Source: Calditrichaceae bacterium (GTDB lineage Bacteria; Calditrichota; Calditrichia; Calditrichales; JBFXGD01). From it: a stretch of DNA of 64,000 nt. Below are positions 9,495 to 34,990 of this stretch, in pieces (position 1 is the first letter of the stretch; the number at the start of each line of letters is the position of its first letter). The notes under the pieces were generated by a model. That model was not told the origin of the DNA and ran no database searches. It worked only from the letters and a program-made list of their open reading frames with translations. A program made the translations under genes and the position numbers. The stretch spans positions 192,001 to 256,000 of the forward strand of contig JBFXLE010000001.1 in the NCBI GenBank assembly GCA_050173015.1. The letters run 5' to 3'.

Positions 9495-10361
9495 ATGAAA
9501 TGTTTGCAAAGCATGAGCTCTCCTATTATCGTAATTGGCGCACATCGATCGGGTACAAGTTTGATTAGCAGGGTACTTGAATCGGCAGGAGTATTTATGG
9601 GAAGAAAAAAAGATATCAATAACGAATCTTTATTCTTTCAGAATCTAAATCAGTGGCTTCTGGCACAGAGCAGCGCAACGTGGGATAATCCGGATTACAT
9701 AGAGTACTTAATTCAAAATGAAGAGATTTTAAGTTTAAATGTTGAATATTTGGAAAGTCTTCTTCATTCACCTCACATGATAAATTATTTAGGATTAATG
9801 AAATATTTAAGAAGTTTTAATGGCAAAAATTTGAAATTTACCTGGGGGTGGAAAGATCCTAGAAATACATTCACATTACCTGTATGGCTAAATATTTTCC
9901 CAGACGCAAAAATAATTCACGTATATCGGCATGGGGTGGATGTGGCGAACAGTCTGACCATCAGGGAAGCGAAGATTTTTTCGGAATCGAAAAGACTGCA
10001 TTATAACAGACACTCACTTTATAAAATACAAAAGAAAAAAGGCTATTTTACATATAGTATCTATTTAAGCAGATTAAATAACGCCTTCGATTTATGGCTA
10101 AAGTACATGAAAGCTGCAAAAAGATACCAAGGATCTTTGGGTGAAAATTATTTTGAATTAAGCTATGAAAACTTTTTACTCGAACCAGAAAGACATCTGC
10201 CGCGACTACTTAATTTTATCGATCAGGAATATCAGGTTAATCATTTAGAAAATATCAAGGGGATGTTAAGAAAAGACAGAGTTTATGCGTATAAAAATGA
10301 TGAAAAATTACTAGCTTTTTCAAAAACCGTTGAAGATAAAATTAGGTCTTATTATGAATAG
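9495..10361 (+). CDS. Sulfotransferase family protein
   Basis: GAHRSGTS PAPS-binding loop, WGWKDPRN, YENFL. Confidence 0.85.
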   Translation: MKCLQSMSSPIIVIGAHRSGTSLISRVLESAGVFMGRKKDINNESLFFQNLNQWLLAQSSATWDNPDYIEYLIQNEEILSLNVEYLESLLHSPHMINYLGLMKYLRSFNGKNLKFTWGWKDPRNTFTLPVWLNIFPDAKIIHVYRHGVDVANSLTIREAKIFSESKRLHYNRHSLYKIQKKKGYFTYSIYLSRLNNAFDLWLKYMKAAKRYQGSLGENYFELSYENFLLEPERHLPRLLNFIDQEYQVNHLENIKGMLRKDRVYAYKNDEKLLAFSKTVEDKIRSYYE

Positions 10362-27305: not shown

Positions 27306-28163
27306 ATGAATAAAACATACAAACCAGTTATAATAATAGGTGCGCCGCGTTCAGGAACAAACATATTAAGGGATGTTCTAACAAGTCTCTCCGGTGTTGG
27401 TACCTGGCCTTGTGATGAAATAAATTATATTTGGCGTCATGGAAATGTCAAATATCCGTCGGATGAATTTCCTCCGGATTTGGCGAACCTGAAAGTCAAA
27501 GAATTTATAAATGGGCAATTCAGAAAGTTGGCAATCCAATATGATTTAGATTATATAGTTGAAAAAACGTGTGCGAATTCTTTGAGAGTCGGATTTGTAA
27601 ATGAAGTGATGCCAAATGCAAAATATATTTTTATTATTCGGAATGGTATAGATGTGACAGCATCAGCAATAAAAAGATGGAAAGCAGATTTAGATTTGAA
27701 ATATGTTCTAAGAAAGGCAAGATATATTCCTGCGTCCGATATACCATATTATTCGACAAAATATATCTGGAATCGATTATATAAGCTCATGAATTCTGAC
27801 AAACGATTAGCATTCTGGGGTCCTAAGCTAAATGAAATGAATGATCTGTCAAATCAATATTCTATTCATGAAATCGCGGCATTACAATGGCAGAAATGTG
27901 TAATCAATGCAGAAAATGATTTTAAGCATATTAACGAAACTAGGATACATCGATTAAAATATGAAAATTTTGTCCTGAATCCTGAAAATGAATTAGCTGA
28001 GATTTGTGACTTTATGGAAGTTCCAATACCAAATAATTTAAATTTAATTTCAAAACAAGTTTCAAAATCTAGTATTGGAAAGGGAACCGGTAGCTTAAAT
28101 CCTGATATCCTTAACAAAATTGTGCCTTTAATAAAAAACACATTACAAGAGTATAATTATTAA
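27306..28163 (+). CDS. Sulfotransferase family protein
   Basis: GAPRSGTN PAPS-binding loop, VEKT, IRNGIDV, YENFV. Confidence 0.85.
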   Translation: MNKTYKPVIIIGAPRSGTNILRDVLTSLSGVGTWPCDEINYIWRHGNVKYPSDEFPPDLANLKVKEFINGQFRKLAIQYDLDYIVEKTCANSLRVGFVNEVMPNAKYIFIIRNGIDVTASAIKRWKADLDLKYVLRKARYIPASDIPYYSTKYIWNRLYKLMNSDKRLAFWGPKLNEMNDLSNQYSIHEIAALQWQKCVINAENDFKHINETRIHRLKYENFVLNPENELAEICDFMEVPIPNNLNLISKQVSKSSIGKGTGSLNPDILNKIVPLIKNTLQEYNY

Positions 28164-28172
28164 GTATTTTTT

Positions 28173-28769
28173 ATGTCAAAAAGAAATAAAATTATTAAAC
28201 GGATATTTGATGTTTTGTTTTCATTCATCGGTCTAATCTTATTTAGCTGGCTAATCTTTATTGCTTTTGTCCTGGCATCAATAACCACAAAATCGAGTGG
28301 TTTTTTTATACAGGAACGAATTGGTAGGAATGGGCGGAAATTTAAGATTATAAAAATTAAAACTATGATTAGTAACCCCCAAATAAGTAGCTGTGTCACT
28401 ACCGAGAATGATCCTAGAATTACGCGATTGGGCAAAATATTTAGAAAAACAAAAATTGATGAATTGCCACAGCTTTTGAATGTGCTAATTGGAGATATGA
28501 GTTTTGTAGGTCCTCGTCCAGACGTAGAATCTTATTATGTAAATTTGTCGGAAAATGATAAAATCATCCTTACTGTTAGACCGGGTATCACTGGTCCGGC
28601 CACGTTAAAATATCGCAATGAAGAAAAAATATTATCCATGCAAGAAAACCCCGAACAATATAGTCGCAATATAATTTTTCCCAACAAAATAGCCTTAAAC
28701 AAGGATTACATTAAAAATTATGGTCTAAATAAAGATTTTTACTATATCTTTAAAACCATTTTTAAATGA
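28173..28769 (+). CDS. Initiating sugar-phosphate transferase (PglC/WcaJ C-terminal-like)
   Basis: KRIFD, DPRIT, KIDELPQL, GDMSFVGPRP, RPGITG. Confidence 0.93.
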   Translation: MSKRNKIIKRIFDVLFSFIGLILFSWLIFIAFVLASITTKSSGFFIQERIGRNGRKFKIIKIKTMISNPQISSCVTTENDPRITRLGKIFRKTKIDELPQLLNVLIGDMSFVGPRPDVESYYVNLSENDKIILTVRPGITGPATLKYRNEEKILSMQENPEQYSRNIIFPNKIALNKDYIKNYGLNKDFYYIFKTIFK

Positions 28770-28818
28770 ATTATAAATTTAGAAATAAATACATTCTATT
28801 TAACTTTTATTATTTCAA

Positions 28819-29961
28819 ATGGATTTTATGAACTTAAAAAAAATCTGGCTTTCTTCCCCGCACATGAGCGGGGAAGAGCTTAAATACATTCAGGAAGCAT
28901 TTGACACAAACTGGATCGCGCCGCTTGGCCCTCATGTGGACGCTTTCGAAAATGAAGTCGCCAATTTTGTTGGCGTAAAACACGCGGCGGCGCTCATGTC
29001 CGGTACGGCGGCTATTCATCTTGCTTTAGTAATGCTTGGAGTCGGTTCGGGAGATGAAGTCATTTGTCAGTCCTTCACCTTCTCCGCCAGCGCGAATCCA
29101 ATTATATATCAACACGCGACACCTGTTTTTGTGGACAGTGAGACCGATACCTGGAATATGGATCCCAATTTACTGGAAGAAGCCATAAAGGACCGAATTC
29201 TTAAGGGAAGAAAACCAAAAGCAGTCATCCTGGTACATCTTTACGGACAGCCCGCTAAACTGGATGAGATTATACAAATTTGCAATCGATACGAAATACC
29301 GCTGATTGAAGACGCGGCGGAAGCCCTCGGAAGCGAGTATAAAGCGAAAAAAGCAGGTAGTTTTGGAAAATTTGGCATACTCTCCTTCAACGGCAATAAA
29401 ATTATTACGACTTCCGGCGGTGGAATGCTGATCTCAAATGACGAAGATATAATTCAAAAAGCGCGATTTCTCTCCACCCAGGCCAGAGATGACGCGCCGC
29501 ATTATGAACATACGCATATTGGATATAATTACCGGATGAGCAATGTGCTGGCGGCCATCGGACGCGGCCAGATGTCCGTTCTTCGGAAACGGATTGAACA
29601 GCGCAGATCAGTATTTGAGCATTATAAAACCGTGTTGAGTGATTTACCCGGAATACACTTTCAGCCGGAATATAAGGGAACTCTTTCCAACAGATGGCTA
29701 ACCGCGCTTACGATTGATCCTAAGCTCTCAAAAGTTGACCGGGAAAAAGTTCGCCTGGAGCTTGCCCAAAAAAATATAGAATCACGGCCATTATGGAAAC
29801 CGATGCATCTTCAGCCGGTATTTAAAAATGCTCCGGCTTATATAAATGGGAATTCTGAACTTTTATTCCTAAGCGGTTTATGCCTCCCATCTGGGAGTAA
29901 TCTGGAAAAGAATGATTTAATAATGATTGCTGATACGGTTAAAAATATTATCATTAGTTAA
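28819..29961 (+). CDS. DegT/DnrJ/EryC1/StrS aminotransferase (PglE/EpsN-like)
   Basis: NWIAPLGP, EDAAEALG, SFNGNKIITTSGGG, RPLWKPMH. Confidence 0.9.
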   Translation: MDFMNLKKIWLSSPHMSGEELKYIQEAFDTNWIAPLGPHVDAFENEVANFVGVKHAAALMSGTAAIHLALVMLGVGSGDEVICQSFTFSASANPIIYQHATPVFVDSETDTWNMDPNLLEEAIKDRILKGRKPKAVILVHLYGQPAKLDEIIQICNRYEIPLIEDAAEALGSEYKAKKAGSFGKFGILSFNGNKIITTSGGGMLISNDEDIIQKARFLSTQARDDAPHYEHTHIGYNYRMSNVLAAIGRGQMSVLRKRIEQRRSVFEHYKTVLSDLPGIHFQPEYKGTLSNRWLTALTIDPKLSKVDREKVRLELAQKNIESRPLWKPMHLQPVFKNAPAYINGNSELLFLSGLCLPSGSNLEKNDLIMIADTVKNIIIS

Positions 29962-30058
29962 ACATTCATCGCTAAGATTATATAGTCACTAATATTCAGA
30001 AATAATCAATATTACTTTTTTTTGGATATAATTTAACAGGTGCTAATTATTAGAATTA

Positions 30059-31102
30059 ATGGGAACATCTGGGTTGAAAAAATTAAATATTGAACGGATA
30101 TTGATTACAGGAGCAGCAGGTTTTATCGGATTTCACCTTGCAAAGCAACTTTTAGATGCTGGATATGAGATTTCGGGTATTGATAATCTAAATAATTACT
30201 ATGATGTCAGTCTAAAAAATGCCAGGCTGAATATATTGAAGAAATATGATAATTTTACTTTTGATAAAGTTGAACTTGCTGATAGAACAGAGATAGATAA
30301 AATATTTACGACAAAATCACCGGATGTTGTTGTTAATCTAGCCGCACAGGCCGGAGTAAGATATTCCATTGAGAATCCCTATGCATACCTGGATAGTAAT
30401 CTAAGCGGATTCCTGAATATATTGGAAGGATGTCGGAATTATAATGTGAAACATCTGGTATATGCATCTTCCAGCTCCGTTTATGGCGCGAATACCCGGA
30501 TGCCTTTTTCCACACACCAGACAGTGGACCATCCACTTAGTCTGTACGCGGCTACAAAAAAATCAAATGAATTAATGGCTCACACATATAGTAATTTATA
30601 TGATATTCCGACTACCGGTCTCAGATTTTTTACCGTTTACGGACCATGGGGCAGACCGGATATGGCTATGTTTTTATTCACGAAAGCAATATTATCAAAC
30701 CAACCCATCGATGTATTTAATCACGGAGACATGGAAAGAGATTTCACCTATATAGATGATATAGTGAATGGCATTGAAAAAATATTGTTCAGAATTCCTG
30801 AGGCAAATCCCGGATGGTCAGGAAACGCTCCGGATCCGGCTTCAAGTTTTTCCCGTTATAAAATATACAATATCGGTAATAACAAGCCGGAAAAGCTATC
30901 CTATTTAATTATGCTTCTGGAAAAATATCTCGGTAAAAAAGCCATAATAAATTATCTGCCCATGCAGCCCGGAGATGTAAAAGCAACTTTCGCAGATATA
31001 GATGATTTGGTTAATGATGCCGGGTTCAGACCTTCAACCGCGTTAGAAGAAGGTGTAAAAAAATTTGTAGATTGGTATAAAAAATTTTATAAAATAAATT
31101 AA
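30059..31102 (+). CDS. NAD-dependent epimerase, UDP-glucuronate 4-epimerase-like
   Basis: [39 protein letters not shown]. Confidence 0.88.
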
Positions 31103-31322
31103 GATTATCAGTTTATATCATTTAATTATCCCCTTTAATCCCATACGATTTCTCTAATTGTTGAATTTGATTTTTCGGCGTAGTGAGTCTACCTAAAATC
31201 AATTAAAGTGAAAAATCATATCCCATTATTAAGTCTTTCGATTTGGCCACGTATGATATCATTTAGAATAATTTTTGTGCTTGATTAAAAGCTTCTGCTA
31301 TATATTTACGGAGGTTATCACC

Positions 31323-33245
31323 ATGAAAAACGGCTATAATAATGCCGGTTCATCCAAAAACAGTGTTTATGATGCTCTGCCGCAAAAAAAGGTTCTCAAG
31401 TTTATAATCGATACGGCGACACTGTTTTTTGCCTACGCGCTTGCTTCGCTGCTGCGATTTGACTTCCGACCTACACCGGTACAAATATTAAACGTTCAAA
31501 ATTCCCTTCTGCTGGCGGTTTTTATCCCGACGGTGGTCATTTACGCGCTTAGAGTGAATCACGGAAAATGGCGCTATTCGAGTCTCGCGGATTTGATGAA
31601 TCTGTTTGGGGCGTTTACCGCCGGATGGGCGGGATTTGTTTTTGTACTCTATTTCCTGGATTCCGTGTTCGTGCCAAGAACCGTTCTGCTCATGTACTGG
31701 GTGCTGGGTATGTTTTCACTGAGTGTCACAAGAGCTATGCCCAGAATTTTGACCAAACTGAGAATGTATATGCTCCCTGATAAACGACGCACAATGGTTA
31801 TCGGCGCGGGAGACGCGGGGGAAATGATTATTCGTCAAATGAAAAACAATCCAGAACTGGGCTATTATCCCGTTGCGATCGTGGATGATTCAAAGAAAAA
31901 AATAAATACTAAAATACACGGCGTTAAAGTCTATGGCGGTATCTCTAAATTAACGGAAATCGCCCGGATAAACAAAATAGATGAGATTATTATCGCCACA
32001 CCATCGGCGAGACCGACACAGATGAGACGCATCGTCCAGCTCTGTGAAGCGACCGGCATCGAGTTCAAAACCGTCCCGGGGCCGCGGGAAATTGTAAACG
32101 GTCAGGTCGAACTAAACCAGATCAGAAAAGTTAAAATCGACGATCTGCTCGACCGCAGACCGGTTCAGATTGACTGGGAGAAAATCCGTGAATATGCGAA
32201 GGATAAAGTGGTTTTAATCACCGGGGCGGGTGGATCGATTGGTTCGGAGCTTTCAAGACAAATATTGAAATTGAATCCCAAAAAACTGATCTGTCTCGAC
32301 AGAACCGAAAACAGCCTGTTCTATCTTGAACATGAACTTCGTCAGATGCATGAACAAACCGATTATCAGGTATGTGTGGCGGATATTCTTGATGAGGATA
32401 AAATCAGTTCCGTTCTGACAAAACACCGGCCCCATATGGTGTTTCACGCGGCTGCTTATAAGCATGTACCGTTAATGGAGCTGCATCCGGAAGAGGCCAT
32501 CCGGAATAATGTGATCGGCACGTATAAAATGATGAGCCTTTCAGAGAAATTTGGTGTGGAAAAATTTGTGCTCATCTCAACCGATAAAGCGGTGAATCCA
32601 AGCTCCATCATGGGAGCGACAAAAAGAACGGCGGAACTGATTCTGCAATCATACTCATCAAAAACGGACATGAAACTGATTACCGTCCGTTTCGGGAATG
32701 TGCTCGGCAGCTACGGCAGTGTGATTCCATTGTTTCAAAAACAAATTTCAAACGGCGGACCGGTAACAATAACGCACCCGGATATGAAACGGTTTTTTAT
32801 GACCATTCCGGAAGCGGTGAAACTCATTTTGGAATCAGCGCGTATGGGACAGGGGAATGAAATCTTTGTTTTGGATATGGGTGAACCGGTGAAACTGTTA
32901 AACATCGCGCGGAGATTGATCAGCCTTTCGGGATATGAACCGGACAAAGATATCGCGATTGAAATTATCGGAACAAGACCGGGTGAAAAACTGGAAGAAG
33001 AGCTCTGGAACACAGGAGAAGTCCCGATGAAAACGGATCATCCGAAAATTATGATGGCGCTGGGCAATCATTTCAATCACTGGGATATCATGAGCCAACA
33101 CATTGACGTTTTAAGCGAATATTCCCAGACTTACAATATAAAAGGCATCTATGATAAACTAATGTCGATTATACCGGAATATTCTCCAAACCGGGGTGAT
33201 CAGATTTCCAAACCCGCTAAGACCACTGTAAAAACCCCGGAATAG
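31323..33245 (+). CDS. Membrane-bound UDP-GlcNAc 4,6-dehydratase (PglF/CapD/WbpM-like)
   Basis: Four N-terminal TMs, GAGDAG, TGAGGSIGSE, HAAAYKHVP, STDKAVNP, VRFGNVLGS; start MKNGYN after GGAGG. Confidence 0.92.
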   Translation: MKNGYNNAGSSKNSVYDALPQKKVLKFIIDTATLFFAYALASLLRFDFRPTPVQILNVQNSLLLAVFIPTVVIYALRVNHGKWRYSSLADLMNLFGAFTAGWAGFVFVLYFLDSVFVPRTVLLMYWVLGMFSLSVTRAMPRILTKLRMYMLPDKRRTMVIGAGDAGEMIIRQMKNNPELGYYPVAIVDDSKKKINTKIHGVKVYGGISKLTEIARINKIDEIIIATPSARPTQMRRIVQLCEATGIEFKTVPGPREIVNGQVELNQIRKVKIDDLLDRRPVQIDWEKIREYAKDKVVLITGAGGSIGSELSRQILKLNPKKLICLDRTENSLFYLEHELRQMHEQTDYQVCVADILDEDKISSVLTKHRPHMVFHAAAYKHVPLMELHPEEAIRNNVIGTYKMMSLSEKFGVEKFVLISTDKAVNPSSIMGATKRTAELILQSYSSKTDMKLITVRFGNVLGSYGSVIPLFQKQISNGGPVTITHPDMKRFFMTIPEAVKLILESARMGQGNEIFVLDMGEPVKLLNIARRLISLSGYEPDKDIAIEIIGTRPGEKLEEELWNTGEVPMKTDHPKIMMALGNHFNHWDIMSQHIDVLSEYSQTYNIKGIYDKLMSIIPEYSPNRGDQISKPAKTTVKTPE

Positions 33246-34302
33246 CCCACGAATTACACGAATTATCACAAAAAAAGAAGAATTGTCCACGGATTGCACG
33301 AATTACACAGAAGAAGATTAAAATAATAGGTTTTGTTTTTTAAATCCGTGAAAATCAGTGAAATCAGTGGACCATCTTTAAAGCCGCAAGAGAAGAATTG
33401 TCCACGGATTACACAGATTGCACAGAAAAAGAATTATAAAATTTATTTTAAATCCGTGAAAATCAGTGAAATCAGTGGACTGTCTTTAAAGCAGCAAGAG
33501 AAGAAGAATTGTCCACGGATTGCACGGATTACACAGAAAAAGATTAAACTATAAGACCTTGTTATTTTAAATCCGTGAAAATTAGTGAAATTAGTGGACG
33601 ATCTTTAAAGCCGGAAGAGAAGAAGAATTGTCCACGGATTGCACGAATTAACACTAAGAAGAGAAAAATAAAATAATTGTTTTTTCTAAATCCGTGAAAA
33701 TCAGTGAAATCAGTGGACTATCTTTAAAGCCGCAAGAGAAGAAGAAGTGTCCACGGATTGCACGGATTACACAAAAAAAGAGAAAAATAAAATAATTGTT
33801 TTTTCTAAATCCGTGAAAATCGGTGAAATCAGTGGACTGTCTTTAAAGCCGCAAGAGCAGAAGAATTGTCCACAGATTGCACGGATTACACAGAAAAAGA
33901 TTAAACTATAAGACCTTGTTATTTTAAATCCGTGAAAATTAGTGTAATTAGTGGACGATCTTTAAAGCCGGAAGAGAAGAAGAATTGTCCACGGATTGCA
34001 CGGATTACACAGAAAAAGATTAAACTATAAGACCTTGTTATTTTAAATCCGTGGAAATTAGTGTAATTAGTGGACGATCTTTAACGCCGGAAGAAAAGAA
34101 GAATTGTCCACGGATTACACAGAAAAAGATTAATATATTAGGTTTTGTTTTTTTAATCCGTGAAAATCAGTGAAATCAGTGGACTGTCTTTAAAGCCGCA
34201 AGAGCAGAAGAATTGTCCACGGATTGCACGGATTACACAGAAAAAGATTAAAAGAATAGGCTTTGCTTTTTAAATCCGTGAAAATTGGTGAAATTAGTGG
34301 AC
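33245..34302 (+). repeat. Tandem array of nine ~109-119 bp palindromic (REP/REPIN-like) units plus a leading half unit
   Basis: gtccac starts at 33285, 33400, 33511, 33630, 33749, 33868, 33987, 34106, 34215; each unit closes with gtggac; conserved linker resembling tctttaaagccgcaagagaagaagaatt. Confidence 0.95.
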
Positions 34303-34336
34303 AAAATAAGTTTTTTAATAAGTCGGGTGAAATGAT

Positions 34337-34990
34337 ATGCGAATTATAAGCAAAATTGATGGGCTGAAATTTGGGATTATTCACGCTGAAAACGTAAAAG
34401 TTTGTGATAATGATGAAAAATTTGATAAGATATTTGAAGAATTAGAGGAACAAACACATCTTAAATTTGCAAACACCCGCCCTTCTGAAAATGATATCGT
34501 CAGTCATGTGCGCCGGATGTACCGCCGGATAGGATGGGAACCGACAAAATACAGGCCGTCATCAGAAGCATTAGTCCGACGTATTCTTCAGGGCAAGGGT
34601 TTTTACAGAATCAATAATTTTGTGGATTACGGCAATCTGGTGTCCGCGAAATATCATCTGCCGCTCGGATTGTATGATGTTGACAAAATTCTCGGTGACA
34701 TTGTTGTGGATGTCGGCAAGGCGGGGGAAAGCTATCAGGGGATAAGTAAGCCGGTGATTCATGCCGAAGGGAAAATGATCCTGAGGGATGAGGCGGGGAT
34801 CTTTGGTAATCCGACAGCCGATTCACTCAGAACCTCAATCACAGATGAAACAACACAGGTTCTTGCCGTTTTCTTTTGCCCGCCCGAAGTCAGCGATGAA
34901 CATCTGAAAAAAACGCTCAATACACTTTCCGAATATTACCTGCCTTTCTGCAAAAACAAAAAAATTGATCAAAACATTGTTAAGAATTAA
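34337..34990 (+). CDS. Stand-alone B3/B4 (PheRS beta editing-like) domain protein
   Basis: PTKYRPSSEALVRR, INNFVD.GN, LPLGLYD, GNPTADS.RT. Confidence 0.85.
   Translation: MRIISKIDGLKFGIIHAENVKVCDNDEKFDKIFEELEEQTHLKFANTRPSENDIVSHVRRMYRRIGWEPTKYRPSSEALVRRILQGKGFYRINNFVDYGNLVSAKYHLPLGLYDVDKILGDIVVDVGKAGESYQGISKPVIHAEGKMILRDEAGIFGNPTADSLRTSITDETTQVLAVFFCPPEVSDEHLKKTLNTLSEYYLPFCKNKKIDQNIVKN

Follow-up and report, generated by a model that had tools for sequence, protein, structure and literature searches.

A tandem array of nine nonamer-armed hairpin units behind a Calditrichaceae polysaccharide operon and its putative place in a dispersed family of extragenic palindromes

Repetitive extragenic palindromes (REPs) that go with REP-associated tyrosine transposases (RAYTs) form hairpins whose 5' foot is marked by a conserved tetranucleotide of GTAG type. 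In the BIME-2 clusters (bacterial interspersed mosaic elements, BIMEs) of Escherichia coli, arms of alternating orientation are separated by two alternating types of spacer, and BIMEs are known for IHF, gyrase or Pol I binding and for mRNA stabilisation. REPs have been described as species- or genus-specific, and Caldithrix abyssi has an 18-nt palindromic intergenic repeat, nAACCGTTnnAACGGTTn, that prefers regions downstream of genes (both according to the accessible part of PMC5317091). Hairpin arrays of another kind, made of ~150-nt hairpin non-coding RNAs, are used by UG27 reverse transcriptases (RTs), and most multi-hairpin intergenic loci are still uncharacterised, as stated in the accessible part of bioRxiv 10.64898/2026.09.22.753630. 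Here we describe a 1.06-kb non-coding array of nine co-oriented hairpin modules in a 64,000-nucleotide stretch from a Calditrichaceae bacterium (contig JBFXLE010000001.1, positions 192,001 to 256,000 of the forward strand; the whole stretch is called the window below, and features are numbered from its first letter). With about even confidence, we read this array as a BIME-like cluster in which a single member of a dispersed family of REP/REPIN-like extragenic palindromes (REPIN, REP doublet forming hairpin) was amplified locally and in tandem; this would place a series of stem-loops at the 3' end of a polysaccharide operon. A member of a dispersed family is suggested because the same capped nonamer arm recurs in the intergenic DNA of many unrelated bacteria. 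No description of this family was found in Rfam or in the searchable literature, and its nonamer build, its free positions and its conservation across phyla are unusual.

Architecture of the array

Each module consists of an imperfect hairpin of 79-89 nt and a linker of 27-30 nt, and the hairpin units together cover 33285-34302. Every unit has GTCCAC at its start and GTGGAC at its end. The distances between unit starts are 115, 111, 119, 119, 119, 119, 119 and 109 bp, exactly the periods given in a first-pass annotation of this DNA, which had noticed the nine co-oriented units. Tandem Repeats Finder reports a period of 119 with 7.3-8.7 copies and 82-86% matches, together with higher-order periods of 238 and 357 bp. 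The array is non-coding, as had been claimed, with 18-25 stop codons in each of the six frames.

An arm consists of GTCCAC and, behind it, two or three CAC-N-RATT-N nonamers, and the right arm is an inverted copy of the left one; this bears out the earlier description of inverted arms made of 9-10 bp sub-repeats, with the hairpins being imperfect. Units 4 and 8 have the more deviant arms. The motif is strongly concentrated in the array: the left arm as first annotated has seven matches at no more than three mismatches, three of them exact, all within the array (a match occurred in 0 of 100 shuffles); 22 of the window's 24 exact CACGGATT octamers lie there, against a chance mean of 2.35, as do 46 of its 57 CAC-N-RATT octamers. 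The array is the single arm cluster of the window, and no arm lies elsewhere in it.

The array begins directly behind the TAG stop codon (33243-33245) of the last operon gene with a lone degenerate left arm (CCCACGAATTACACGAATTATCAC; 33246..33284, + strand), which the first-pass annotation had also recognised and which can be regarded as a truncated "unit 0": it holds two copies of CACGAATT plus ATCAC, then an A-run and then the linker 3' end AAGAATT. The complete units follow on the same strand: unit 1 at 33285..33372 (88 nt, -23.4 kcal/mol, z -4.3), unit 2 at 33400..33480 (81 nt, -21.9 kcal/mol, z -5.5), unit 3 at 33511..33599 (89 nt), unit 4 at 33630..33718 (89 nt), unit 5 at 33749..33837 (89 nt, -26.1 kcal/mol, z -5.6), units 6 and 7 at 33868..33956 and 33987..34075 (89 nt each), unit 8 at 34106..34184 (79 nt, -16.1 kcal/mol, z -1.8), whose left arm is short of one nonamer and which folds in a different register, and unit 9 at 34215..34302 (88 nt), after which 34 nt remain to the start codon of the next gene. 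The eight purine-rich linkers of 27-30 nt (33373-33399, 33481-33510, 33600-33629, 33719-33748, 33838-33867, 33957-33986, 34076-34105 and 34185-34214, thus spanning 33373..34214 of the + strand) have the consensus TCTTTAAAGCCG[C/G]AAGAGAAGAAGAATT and are conserved on a par with the arms. The centre of the loop is less conserved than arms and linker, and three loop types and two indel variants occur among the units.

Folding of the units, which had been proposed as a check, places eight of the nine in one register, with energies over all nine of -16.1 to -26.1 kcal/mol and z-scores of -1.8 to -5.6 (200 shuffles each). The helix consists of segments of 6, 4, 3, 4 and 3 pairs, and the single mismatches between them sit exactly at the N positions of the nonamers. 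There is no covariation beyond paralogy and no clear strand asymmetry among the nine units, which speaks neither for nor against the multi-hairpin RNA/ssDNA platform that the first-pass annotation gave as its other reading.

Units 3, 6 and 7 are 97-98% identical, units 4 and 5 92%, and the others 77-87%. This spread indicates that the array is old, that local duplication has continued in it and that it is unlikely to be an artefact. Tandem repeats are assembly-prone, and an assembly might inflate or scramble a shorter repeat. The units, however, differ in sequence (77-98% identity), in loop type and by indels, which allows unambiguous assembly, and a collapse or expansion of identical copies would not give divergent units; we thus hold an artefact to be extremely improbable. 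The array would have arisen by repeated unequal recombination or replication slippage of a block made of hairpin and flank, to judge from the similarity of the units, with older copies now 77-87% alike and recent ones (units 3, 6 and 7) 97-98%.

Such a history would also be expected of a functionally neutral minisatellite, in which a dispersed palindrome landed or arose behind the operon and was then amplified by slippage or unequal crossing-over. The linker is specific to the array, with no full-length match in the 129 related loci listed (see below), so that the repeat unit may simply be "element plus local flank"; the 238- and 357-bp periods and the near-identity of units 3, 6 and 7 speak for ongoing local duplication, and no partner gene is present among the open reading frames (ORFs) of the window. 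We nevertheless consider neutrality unlikely. The oldest units are only 77-87% alike, yet arms and linker have been kept better than the loop centre and eight of nine units fold in register, which suggests constraint, though gene conversion could give the same result. In addition, the placement of the wider family is non-random, as described in the next section.

Related arms in other genomes

A scan of 185,579 species genomes with the arm pattern GTCCACNGATTNCACNGATT revealed at least 129 loci from about 95 assemblies (counted by accession prefix), so that the search for dispersed copies suggested in the first-pass annotation did find related arms, and found them in intergenic DNA. The record titles name at least 16 phyla, among them Acidobacteriota, Planctomycetota, Verrucomicrobiota, Kiritimatiellota, Lentisphaerota, Omnitrophota, Spirochaetota, Bacteroidota, Calditrichota, KSB1, Gemmatimonadota, Hydrogenedentota, Chloroflexota, Cyanobacteriota, Nitrospirota, Desulfobacterota and Pseudomonadota. 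Among the matches listed, 17 assemblies have several loci each (2-10); the pattern is directly followed by a third nonamer in 91 of 154 unique matches and has a strict inverted partner within 300 nt in 45 of them, and at least one further family feature (a third nonamer, an inverted partner or more nonamers nearby) accompanies 122 of these 154 matches and 96 of the 127 distinct loci. Isolate genomes with the motif are those of Asticcacaulis biprosthecium, Asticcacaulis sp. AC402, A. solisilvae and Salinisphaera sp. RV14. By blastn, further copies, with the head CACCAC instead of GTCCAC, were found in Bacteroides finegoldii, in plasmids of Haliscomenobacter hydrossis and in Persicobacter psychrovividus. 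The two B. finegoldii records (L130 and L131; NZ_OY725969.1 and NZ_OY725947.1) are labelled as plasmids, carry the housekeeping genes serC, trmB, xseA/B and nqrF, and look like pieces of a chromosome. In the Haliscomenobacter plasmids (L132:4083-4130 and L133:4087-4125) the nonamer hairpin is followed by a common flank, AAATCATCTTTATCAATTTCCGCCG..GGCGG, with a second small hairpin; ATCTTTA in this flank recalls the start of the window linker (ATCTTTAAAG), which may be a coincidence.

No match to the motif exists in 5,426 E. coli genomes, and two window units compared by blastn with plasmids and phages gave short AT-rich chance matches or none. Rfam 15 has no match at gathering score anywhere in the window, and for 33100-34450 at E <= 10 it gave only sub-threshold, chance-level matches; in 20 related loci no Rfam match overlaps the motif, the sole match at gathering score being an unrelated Flavo-1 in locus L008. 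There, on a Treponema contig from a metagenome-assembled genome (MAG), Flavo-1 (480-562, - strand, 43.5 bits against a gathering score of 42) lies directly beside matches to group II intron D1-D4 and D5 (643-1317, +), unrelated to the hairpin motif at L008:2001. Text searches, which left subscription-journal papers and bioRxiv supplements outside, found the 17-nt arm strings in no article and the 11-mer arm strings only in unrelated primer lists; the literature found on extragenic palindromes in Bacteroides intergenic DNA gives no description of the motif found here.

Placement and neighbours were analysed for 80 related loci with 2-kb flanks. The motif lies in tandem spacers in 35 loci, in convergent ones in 18, in divergent ones in 4 and inside an ORF call in 7 (these calls have no family match or are doubtful), with 16 loci at a contig edge or unclassed. 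The excess of convergent over divergent spacers (binomial p = 0.004) indicates that divergent, i.e. promoter-containing, spacers are avoided. The genes beside the motif (159 ORFs) are a heterogeneous set with housekeeping roles, including dnaK, a mur ligase, flagellar ring genes, secretion ATPases, aminoacyl-tRNA synthetases and ABC transporters, and an all-vs-all BLASTP comparison of 1,092 ORFs found no recurrent neighbour family beyond ABC ATPases in four loci. An association with polysaccharide loci, as mentioned in the first-pass annotation, was thus not borne out elsewhere. About 9 of the 80 loci (L016, L021, L028, L032, L033, L039, L054, L055 and L065) have small genes of toxin-antitoxin type (HEPN/HepT-MNT, PIN, RelE/ParD, FitA-like) no more than 2 kb from the motif, and in L033 a PIN cassette is flanked by two composite repeat modules.

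At the 12 variable positions of the arm, the identity of copies is 0.55 within genomes and 0.376 between genomes, and none of 2,000 label shuffles reached the observed value; genome-specific subfamilies exist. The elements show no target-site duplication: the longest direct match between 15-nt flanks of 48 hairpins averages 3.48, against 3.44 +/- 0.12 for shuffled partners. The flanks do extend the palindrome (4.33 against 3.59 +/- 0.15 in controls). In a Calditrichia MAG (L036:1985-2160, L042:1985-2205 and L072:1850-2040) elements are nested: perfect outer CACGGATT arms surround inner palindromes made up of different short words that are specific to the genome, and the predicted hairpins fold at -84 to -105 kcal/mol. 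In another MAG (CAZIEA; L027, L043, L044, L052, L075, L099, L111, L117 and L126) the intergenic DNA is a mosaic of 7-9 nt words, e.g. GACGCAAA, CTTCATG, CTGAAGG, CATGTAG and GGGTTCA, in tandem runs of two to five, with a recurring order and nested palindromes, and the CACAGATT module is one of these words.

Comparison of the two arms of 38 independent hairpins, in which partner arms were chosen by similarity, suggests a stricter conservation of the word than of the pairing. The two arms disagree in only 9 of 570 cells at fixed motif positions and, at the three N positions, in 9, 19 and 13 of the 38 hairpins, and the inter-nonamer N matches its partner no better than after shuffling (19 against 16.2 +/- 2.4; 892 of 5,000 shuffles reach the observed value). 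Such a pattern raises the alternative that the array acts at the level of DNA, its operator-like inverted CAC-N-RATT blocks titrating or organising a DNA-binding protein found across phyla, for which a nucleoid-associated protein, a protein of ribbon-helix-helix type or DnaA would be candidates. The array packs 46 CAC-N-RATT octamers into 1 kb at a spacing of 9-10 bp and in inverted blocks; conservation concerns the sequence and not the pairing (the arms disagree at N positions in 24-50% of the 38 hairpins); arm arrays exist that have no inverted partner (L046, L054, L068 and L090, with L124 a further tandem arm array without hairpins); and a DNA word common to many phyla would be expected of a universal DNA-binding protein. 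On the other side, copies are more alike at free positions within genomes than between them, which favours descent or propagation and not an independent selection of sites.

The DnaA-box consensus is TT[A/G]TCCACA, and eight of the nine window left arms read TTGTCCAC[G/A], which resembles it: this head is one mismatch away from a high-GC variant of the DnaA box and two from TTATCCACA. In the related loci, 37 of 201 arms read TT[ATG]TCCACA, and the TT prefix is present in 61 of 201, against about 6% by chance. Yet 164 of the 201 arms form no full box, the Bacteroides and Haliscomenobacter heads end in CACCAC and so lose the T4 of the box, the internal nonamers match the box at only ~6-7 of 9 positions, and the 9-bp period leaves no gap between 9-mer sites. 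Moreover, DnaA is universal, and the motif is absent from the E. coli genomes. Overall, we find a protein-binding platform, with DnaA or another protein, decidedly unlikely as the explanation of the array. By-eye resemblances to the consensus sequences of sigma-54, CRP, parS, NrdR and IHF sites fit badly and were set aside.

Operon context, possible function and partner proteins

A polysaccharide cluster on the + strand (~12.3-33.2 kb) precedes the array, which lies behind its last gene. The cluster has genes for a Wza-like exporter, a Wzz-like protein, a Wzx flippase, aminotransferases, glycosyltransferases, sulfotransferases, a small phosphoglycosyltransferase and finally a PglF/CapD-like membrane-anchored UDP-sugar 4,6-dehydratase (31275..33245, +; NCBIfam PseB/FnlA-type dehydratase, 7e-51 and 8e-45). 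Downstream lies a gene for a stand-alone B3/4-domain protein (34337..34990; Pfam PF03483, 4e-22) on the same strand as the operon, and the next gene in the region carries a type-IX-secretion sorting domain, by which the organism can be assigned to the FCB group. Since the array lies between two same-strand genes, it is probably co-transcribed with the operon. Each transcribed unit would then fold into a stem-loop of -16 to -26 kcal/mol that is interrupted by one mismatched base at each N. Arranged in series, these stem-loops would hinder 3'-to-5' exonucleases and might pause or partly terminate RNA polymerase, so that the stability and expression of the operon would be uncoupled from those of the downstream gene, by analogy with the effects described for REPs and BIMEs (in line with the accessible part of PMC5317091). 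One may speculate that the mismatched N positions make the stems poor substrates for double-strand-specific RNases.

In this neighbourhood, the genes at 28173-33245 (a PglC-like phosphoglycosyltransferase, a LegC/PglE-like aminotransferase, a short-chain epimerase/dehydratase of the SDR family and the PglF-like dehydratase) lie together and resemble a module for a bacillosamine-type amino sugar, placed where the operon ends. Sulfotransferase-family ORFs (PF13469, PF00685) at 9495-10361, beside the cluster, and at 27306-28163, inside it, raise the possibility that the glycan is sulfated. A 148-aa ORF at 11415-11861 matches only positions 201-340 of the 386-position model of anhydro-N-acetylmuramic acid kinase (E 1.7e-7) and may be a fragment.

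The array might also be thought of as a dedicated set of structured RNAs that feeds a reverse transcriptase, as with UG27, or that serves as a sponge for an RNA-binding protein or a small RNA. The ~119-nt hairpin units of the array and their conserved single-stranded linkers speak for this, and the UG27 arrays of ~150-nt hairpins, as given in the accessible part of bioRxiv 10.64898/2026.09.22.753630, offer a precedent. This explanation is very improbable in our view: none of the 49 window ORFs is an RT or accessory gene, the motif of the UG27 units, AUC-N7-UANAG, has no match on either strand, Rfam has no match, and elsewhere the related arms have housekeeping neighbours. Classical intrinsic terminators were rejected as well. 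An outer A-run or T-run is found in 12 and 18 of 153 arms, respectively, which is an enrichment over the ~1% background, and neither is found in 123; a terminator consensus scan of the window region gave nothing above shuffles.

Across phyla, seven of nine nonamer positions are kept while the N positions float, which would imply a sequence-specific trans-acting factor; the elements would be spread within genomes without target-site duplication. The implied partner is not encoded next to the elements. The 49 window ORFs (>=90 aa) include no cas, transposase, reverse transcriptase, integrase, Y1-transposase/RAYT or four-helix-bundle gene, in agreement with the earlier remark that no cas, transposase or RT gene is adjacent. 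The first-pass annotation had further named, as a possible partner, GxxExxY proteins, and had asked for GxxExxY, RAYT/TnpA-REP and four-helix-bundle genes next to dispersed copies; none was found in the 234 ORFs around the 80 loci. For PF05635 (GxxExxY/four-helix-bundle) the count is 0 of 234 with none among the window ORFs, no such annotation occurs in the 74 feature rows for the first 100 kb of the carrier plasmid pHALHY01, and the accessible part of the GxxExxY literature yielded nothing on repeats. The proposed link thus finds no support among neighbouring genes, though GxxExxY proteins encoded elsewhere in those genomes might act in trans. Y1 transposases (RAYTs) are likewise found in 0 of the 234 ORFs and in none of the window ORFs, and a tblastn search with E. 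coli RayT gave no match at E <= 1e-3 in the hairpin-carrying B. finegoldii, Haliscomenobacter and Persicobacter records, a search that distant homologues, or genes in unsampled parts of the genomes, could escape. RayT-like genes with 41-44% identity to E. coli RayT are present in L135-L137 (Chloroflexota plasmid CP069395.1, Gloeocapsa PCC 7428 NC_019746.1 and Kovacikia NZ_CP083583.1), where they are flanked by GTAGG-headed classical REP palindromes unrelated in sequence; canonical REP-RAYT systems therefore coexist with the nonamer family in these phyla.

Another source of mobility could be a DDE transposase, with the elements being miniature inverted-repeat transposable elements (MITEs), i.e. 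deletion derivatives of an insertion sequence whose terminal inverted repeats, here the arms, hold transposase-binding sites. Terminal inverted repeats with internal sub-repeats and genome-specific subfamilies are consistent with this, and a DUF772 (IS5-type) transposase fragment lies 376 bp from the motif in L058. That fragment is, however, the only transposase-like ORF among 234, none of the 80 loci with their 2-kb flanks has a transposase between two arms at a distance of 0.4-3.5 kb, and the 48 hairpins lack a target-site duplication, which makes a MITE origin highly improbable.

A wider reading, which we advance only tentatively, would place the array in a class of extragenic palindromes that is new, pan-bacterial and built of CAC-N-GATT-N, with a conserved sequence-specific partner. 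The sequence and not merely the fold appears to have been kept from Bacteroidota and Calditrichota to Planctomycetota, Acidobacteriota, Cyanobacteriota, Spirochaetota and Caulobacterales. One possible partner is a domesticated enzyme of a new kind, derived from a mobile element and able to insert one palindrome into another with no duplication of the target; another is a nucleic-acid-binding protein of wide conservation. If this were true, the nine units would offer that partner an exceptionally rich natural platform for binding or processing. Species- or genus-specific REP-like elements are hard to generalise with respect to partners and roles, and the ~20-nt arm motif considered here spans isolates and MAGs of many phyla; if a single factor recognises the arm, culturable carriers (Bacteroides finegoldii, Asticcacaulis and Haliscomenobacter) make it directly findable. 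The family would also account, in annotation, for a class of long intergenic hairpins outside Rfam. Taken by itself, the locus is of modest consequence: it probably serves as a stem-loop buffer where a polysaccharide operon ends.

Several observations weigh against the array being an amplified REP-like element that acts at the 3' end of the operon transcript. About 70 chance matches to the arm pattern are expected in the whole collection (2 x 596e9 / 4^17), and, among the matches listed, 31 of 127 loci have no extra family feature by regular expression. The window holds one cluster, and a multi-copy status in the source organism is presumed. The canonical REP/RAYT features, a GTAG head and a RAYT, are missing. 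In tandem spacers there is no bias towards the upstream stop codon (14 elements lie nearer to it and 19 nearer to the downstream start, n=33, p = 0.49), and an outer A-run, which would give a U-tail, is present in the 12 of 153 arms mentioned above; taken together, these two results indicate that the elements are not classical terminators. Folding energy has no consistent strand preference, being better for the + strand in five of nine units and for the - strand in four. G.U pairs that are possible on the + strand only (at 8/83 and 17/74, in four units each) are offset by + strand A.C (at 17/74 in two units and in three further single cells). Finally, a function at the level of RNA is something we purely infer, by analogy.

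Comparison with described repeat systems

The suggestion of a REPIN-like element amplified in tandem, already made in the first-pass annotation, holds for the architecture and for the dispersed intergenic arms, and not for the head or the transposase. Like REPs and REPINs, the elements are short imperfect extragenic palindromes that form hairpins as inverted doublets (in the units of the array, two inverted arms form the hairpin as in a REPIN), lie after genes and avoid promoter regions, have no target-site duplication and form genome-specific subfamilies. They differ from the REP-RAYT system in that the head is GTCCAC in all nine units and not GTAG, in that arms are made of two or three tandem nonamers, and in that no RAYT was found in the ORFs and records described above. 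Whereas REPs are species- or genus-specific, the nonamer motif is common to many phyla, and it appears to be sparse, a single cluster being present in the 64-kb window and two hairpins in 100 kb of pHALHY01.

The layout of a BIME is seen in the array, where 18 arms alternate in orientation across loop and linker spacers directly after the stop codon of the last operon gene; the comparison is an analogy with BIME architecture. The alternating arms and the fact that both kinds of "spacer", loop and linker, are themselves repeated, together with the lack of cas genes in the window, set the array apart from a CRISPR array. Integron attC hairpins have RYYYAAC/GTTRRRY core sites and go with an intI gene; an integron cassette array was rejected here, with unit ends of GTCCAC/GTGGAC and no integrase in the window.

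MITEs such as Correia, RUP and ERIC are similar in being small and non-coding, in having terminal inverted repeats, in folding as RNA and in affecting neighbouring mRNAs, but the nonamer elements lack a target-site duplication and a matching autonomous element. The heptamer-based short tandemly repeated repetitive (STRR) sequences and small dispersed repeats of cyanobacteria share the use of intergenic tandem "words" that are often inverted into hairpins and nested, an appearance that is also that of L036, L042, L072 and the CAZIEA MAG; those words are heptamers of cyanobacteria, whereas the word here is a nonamer with two free positions in many phyla.

As far as the accessible part of bioRxiv 10.64898/2026.09.22.753630 describes them, the UG27 arrays are also tandem hairpin units of ~120-150 nt in the intergenic DNA of Bacteroidota and others, but they adjoin an RT and two accessory genes in prophages and carry the AUC-N7-UANAG motif, and neither is present here. 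The Caldithrix abyssi repeat, as presented in the accessible part of PMC5317091, is a REP-like intergenic palindrome from a related deep lineage of the FCB group; it is unrelated in sequence and has no nonamer arms.

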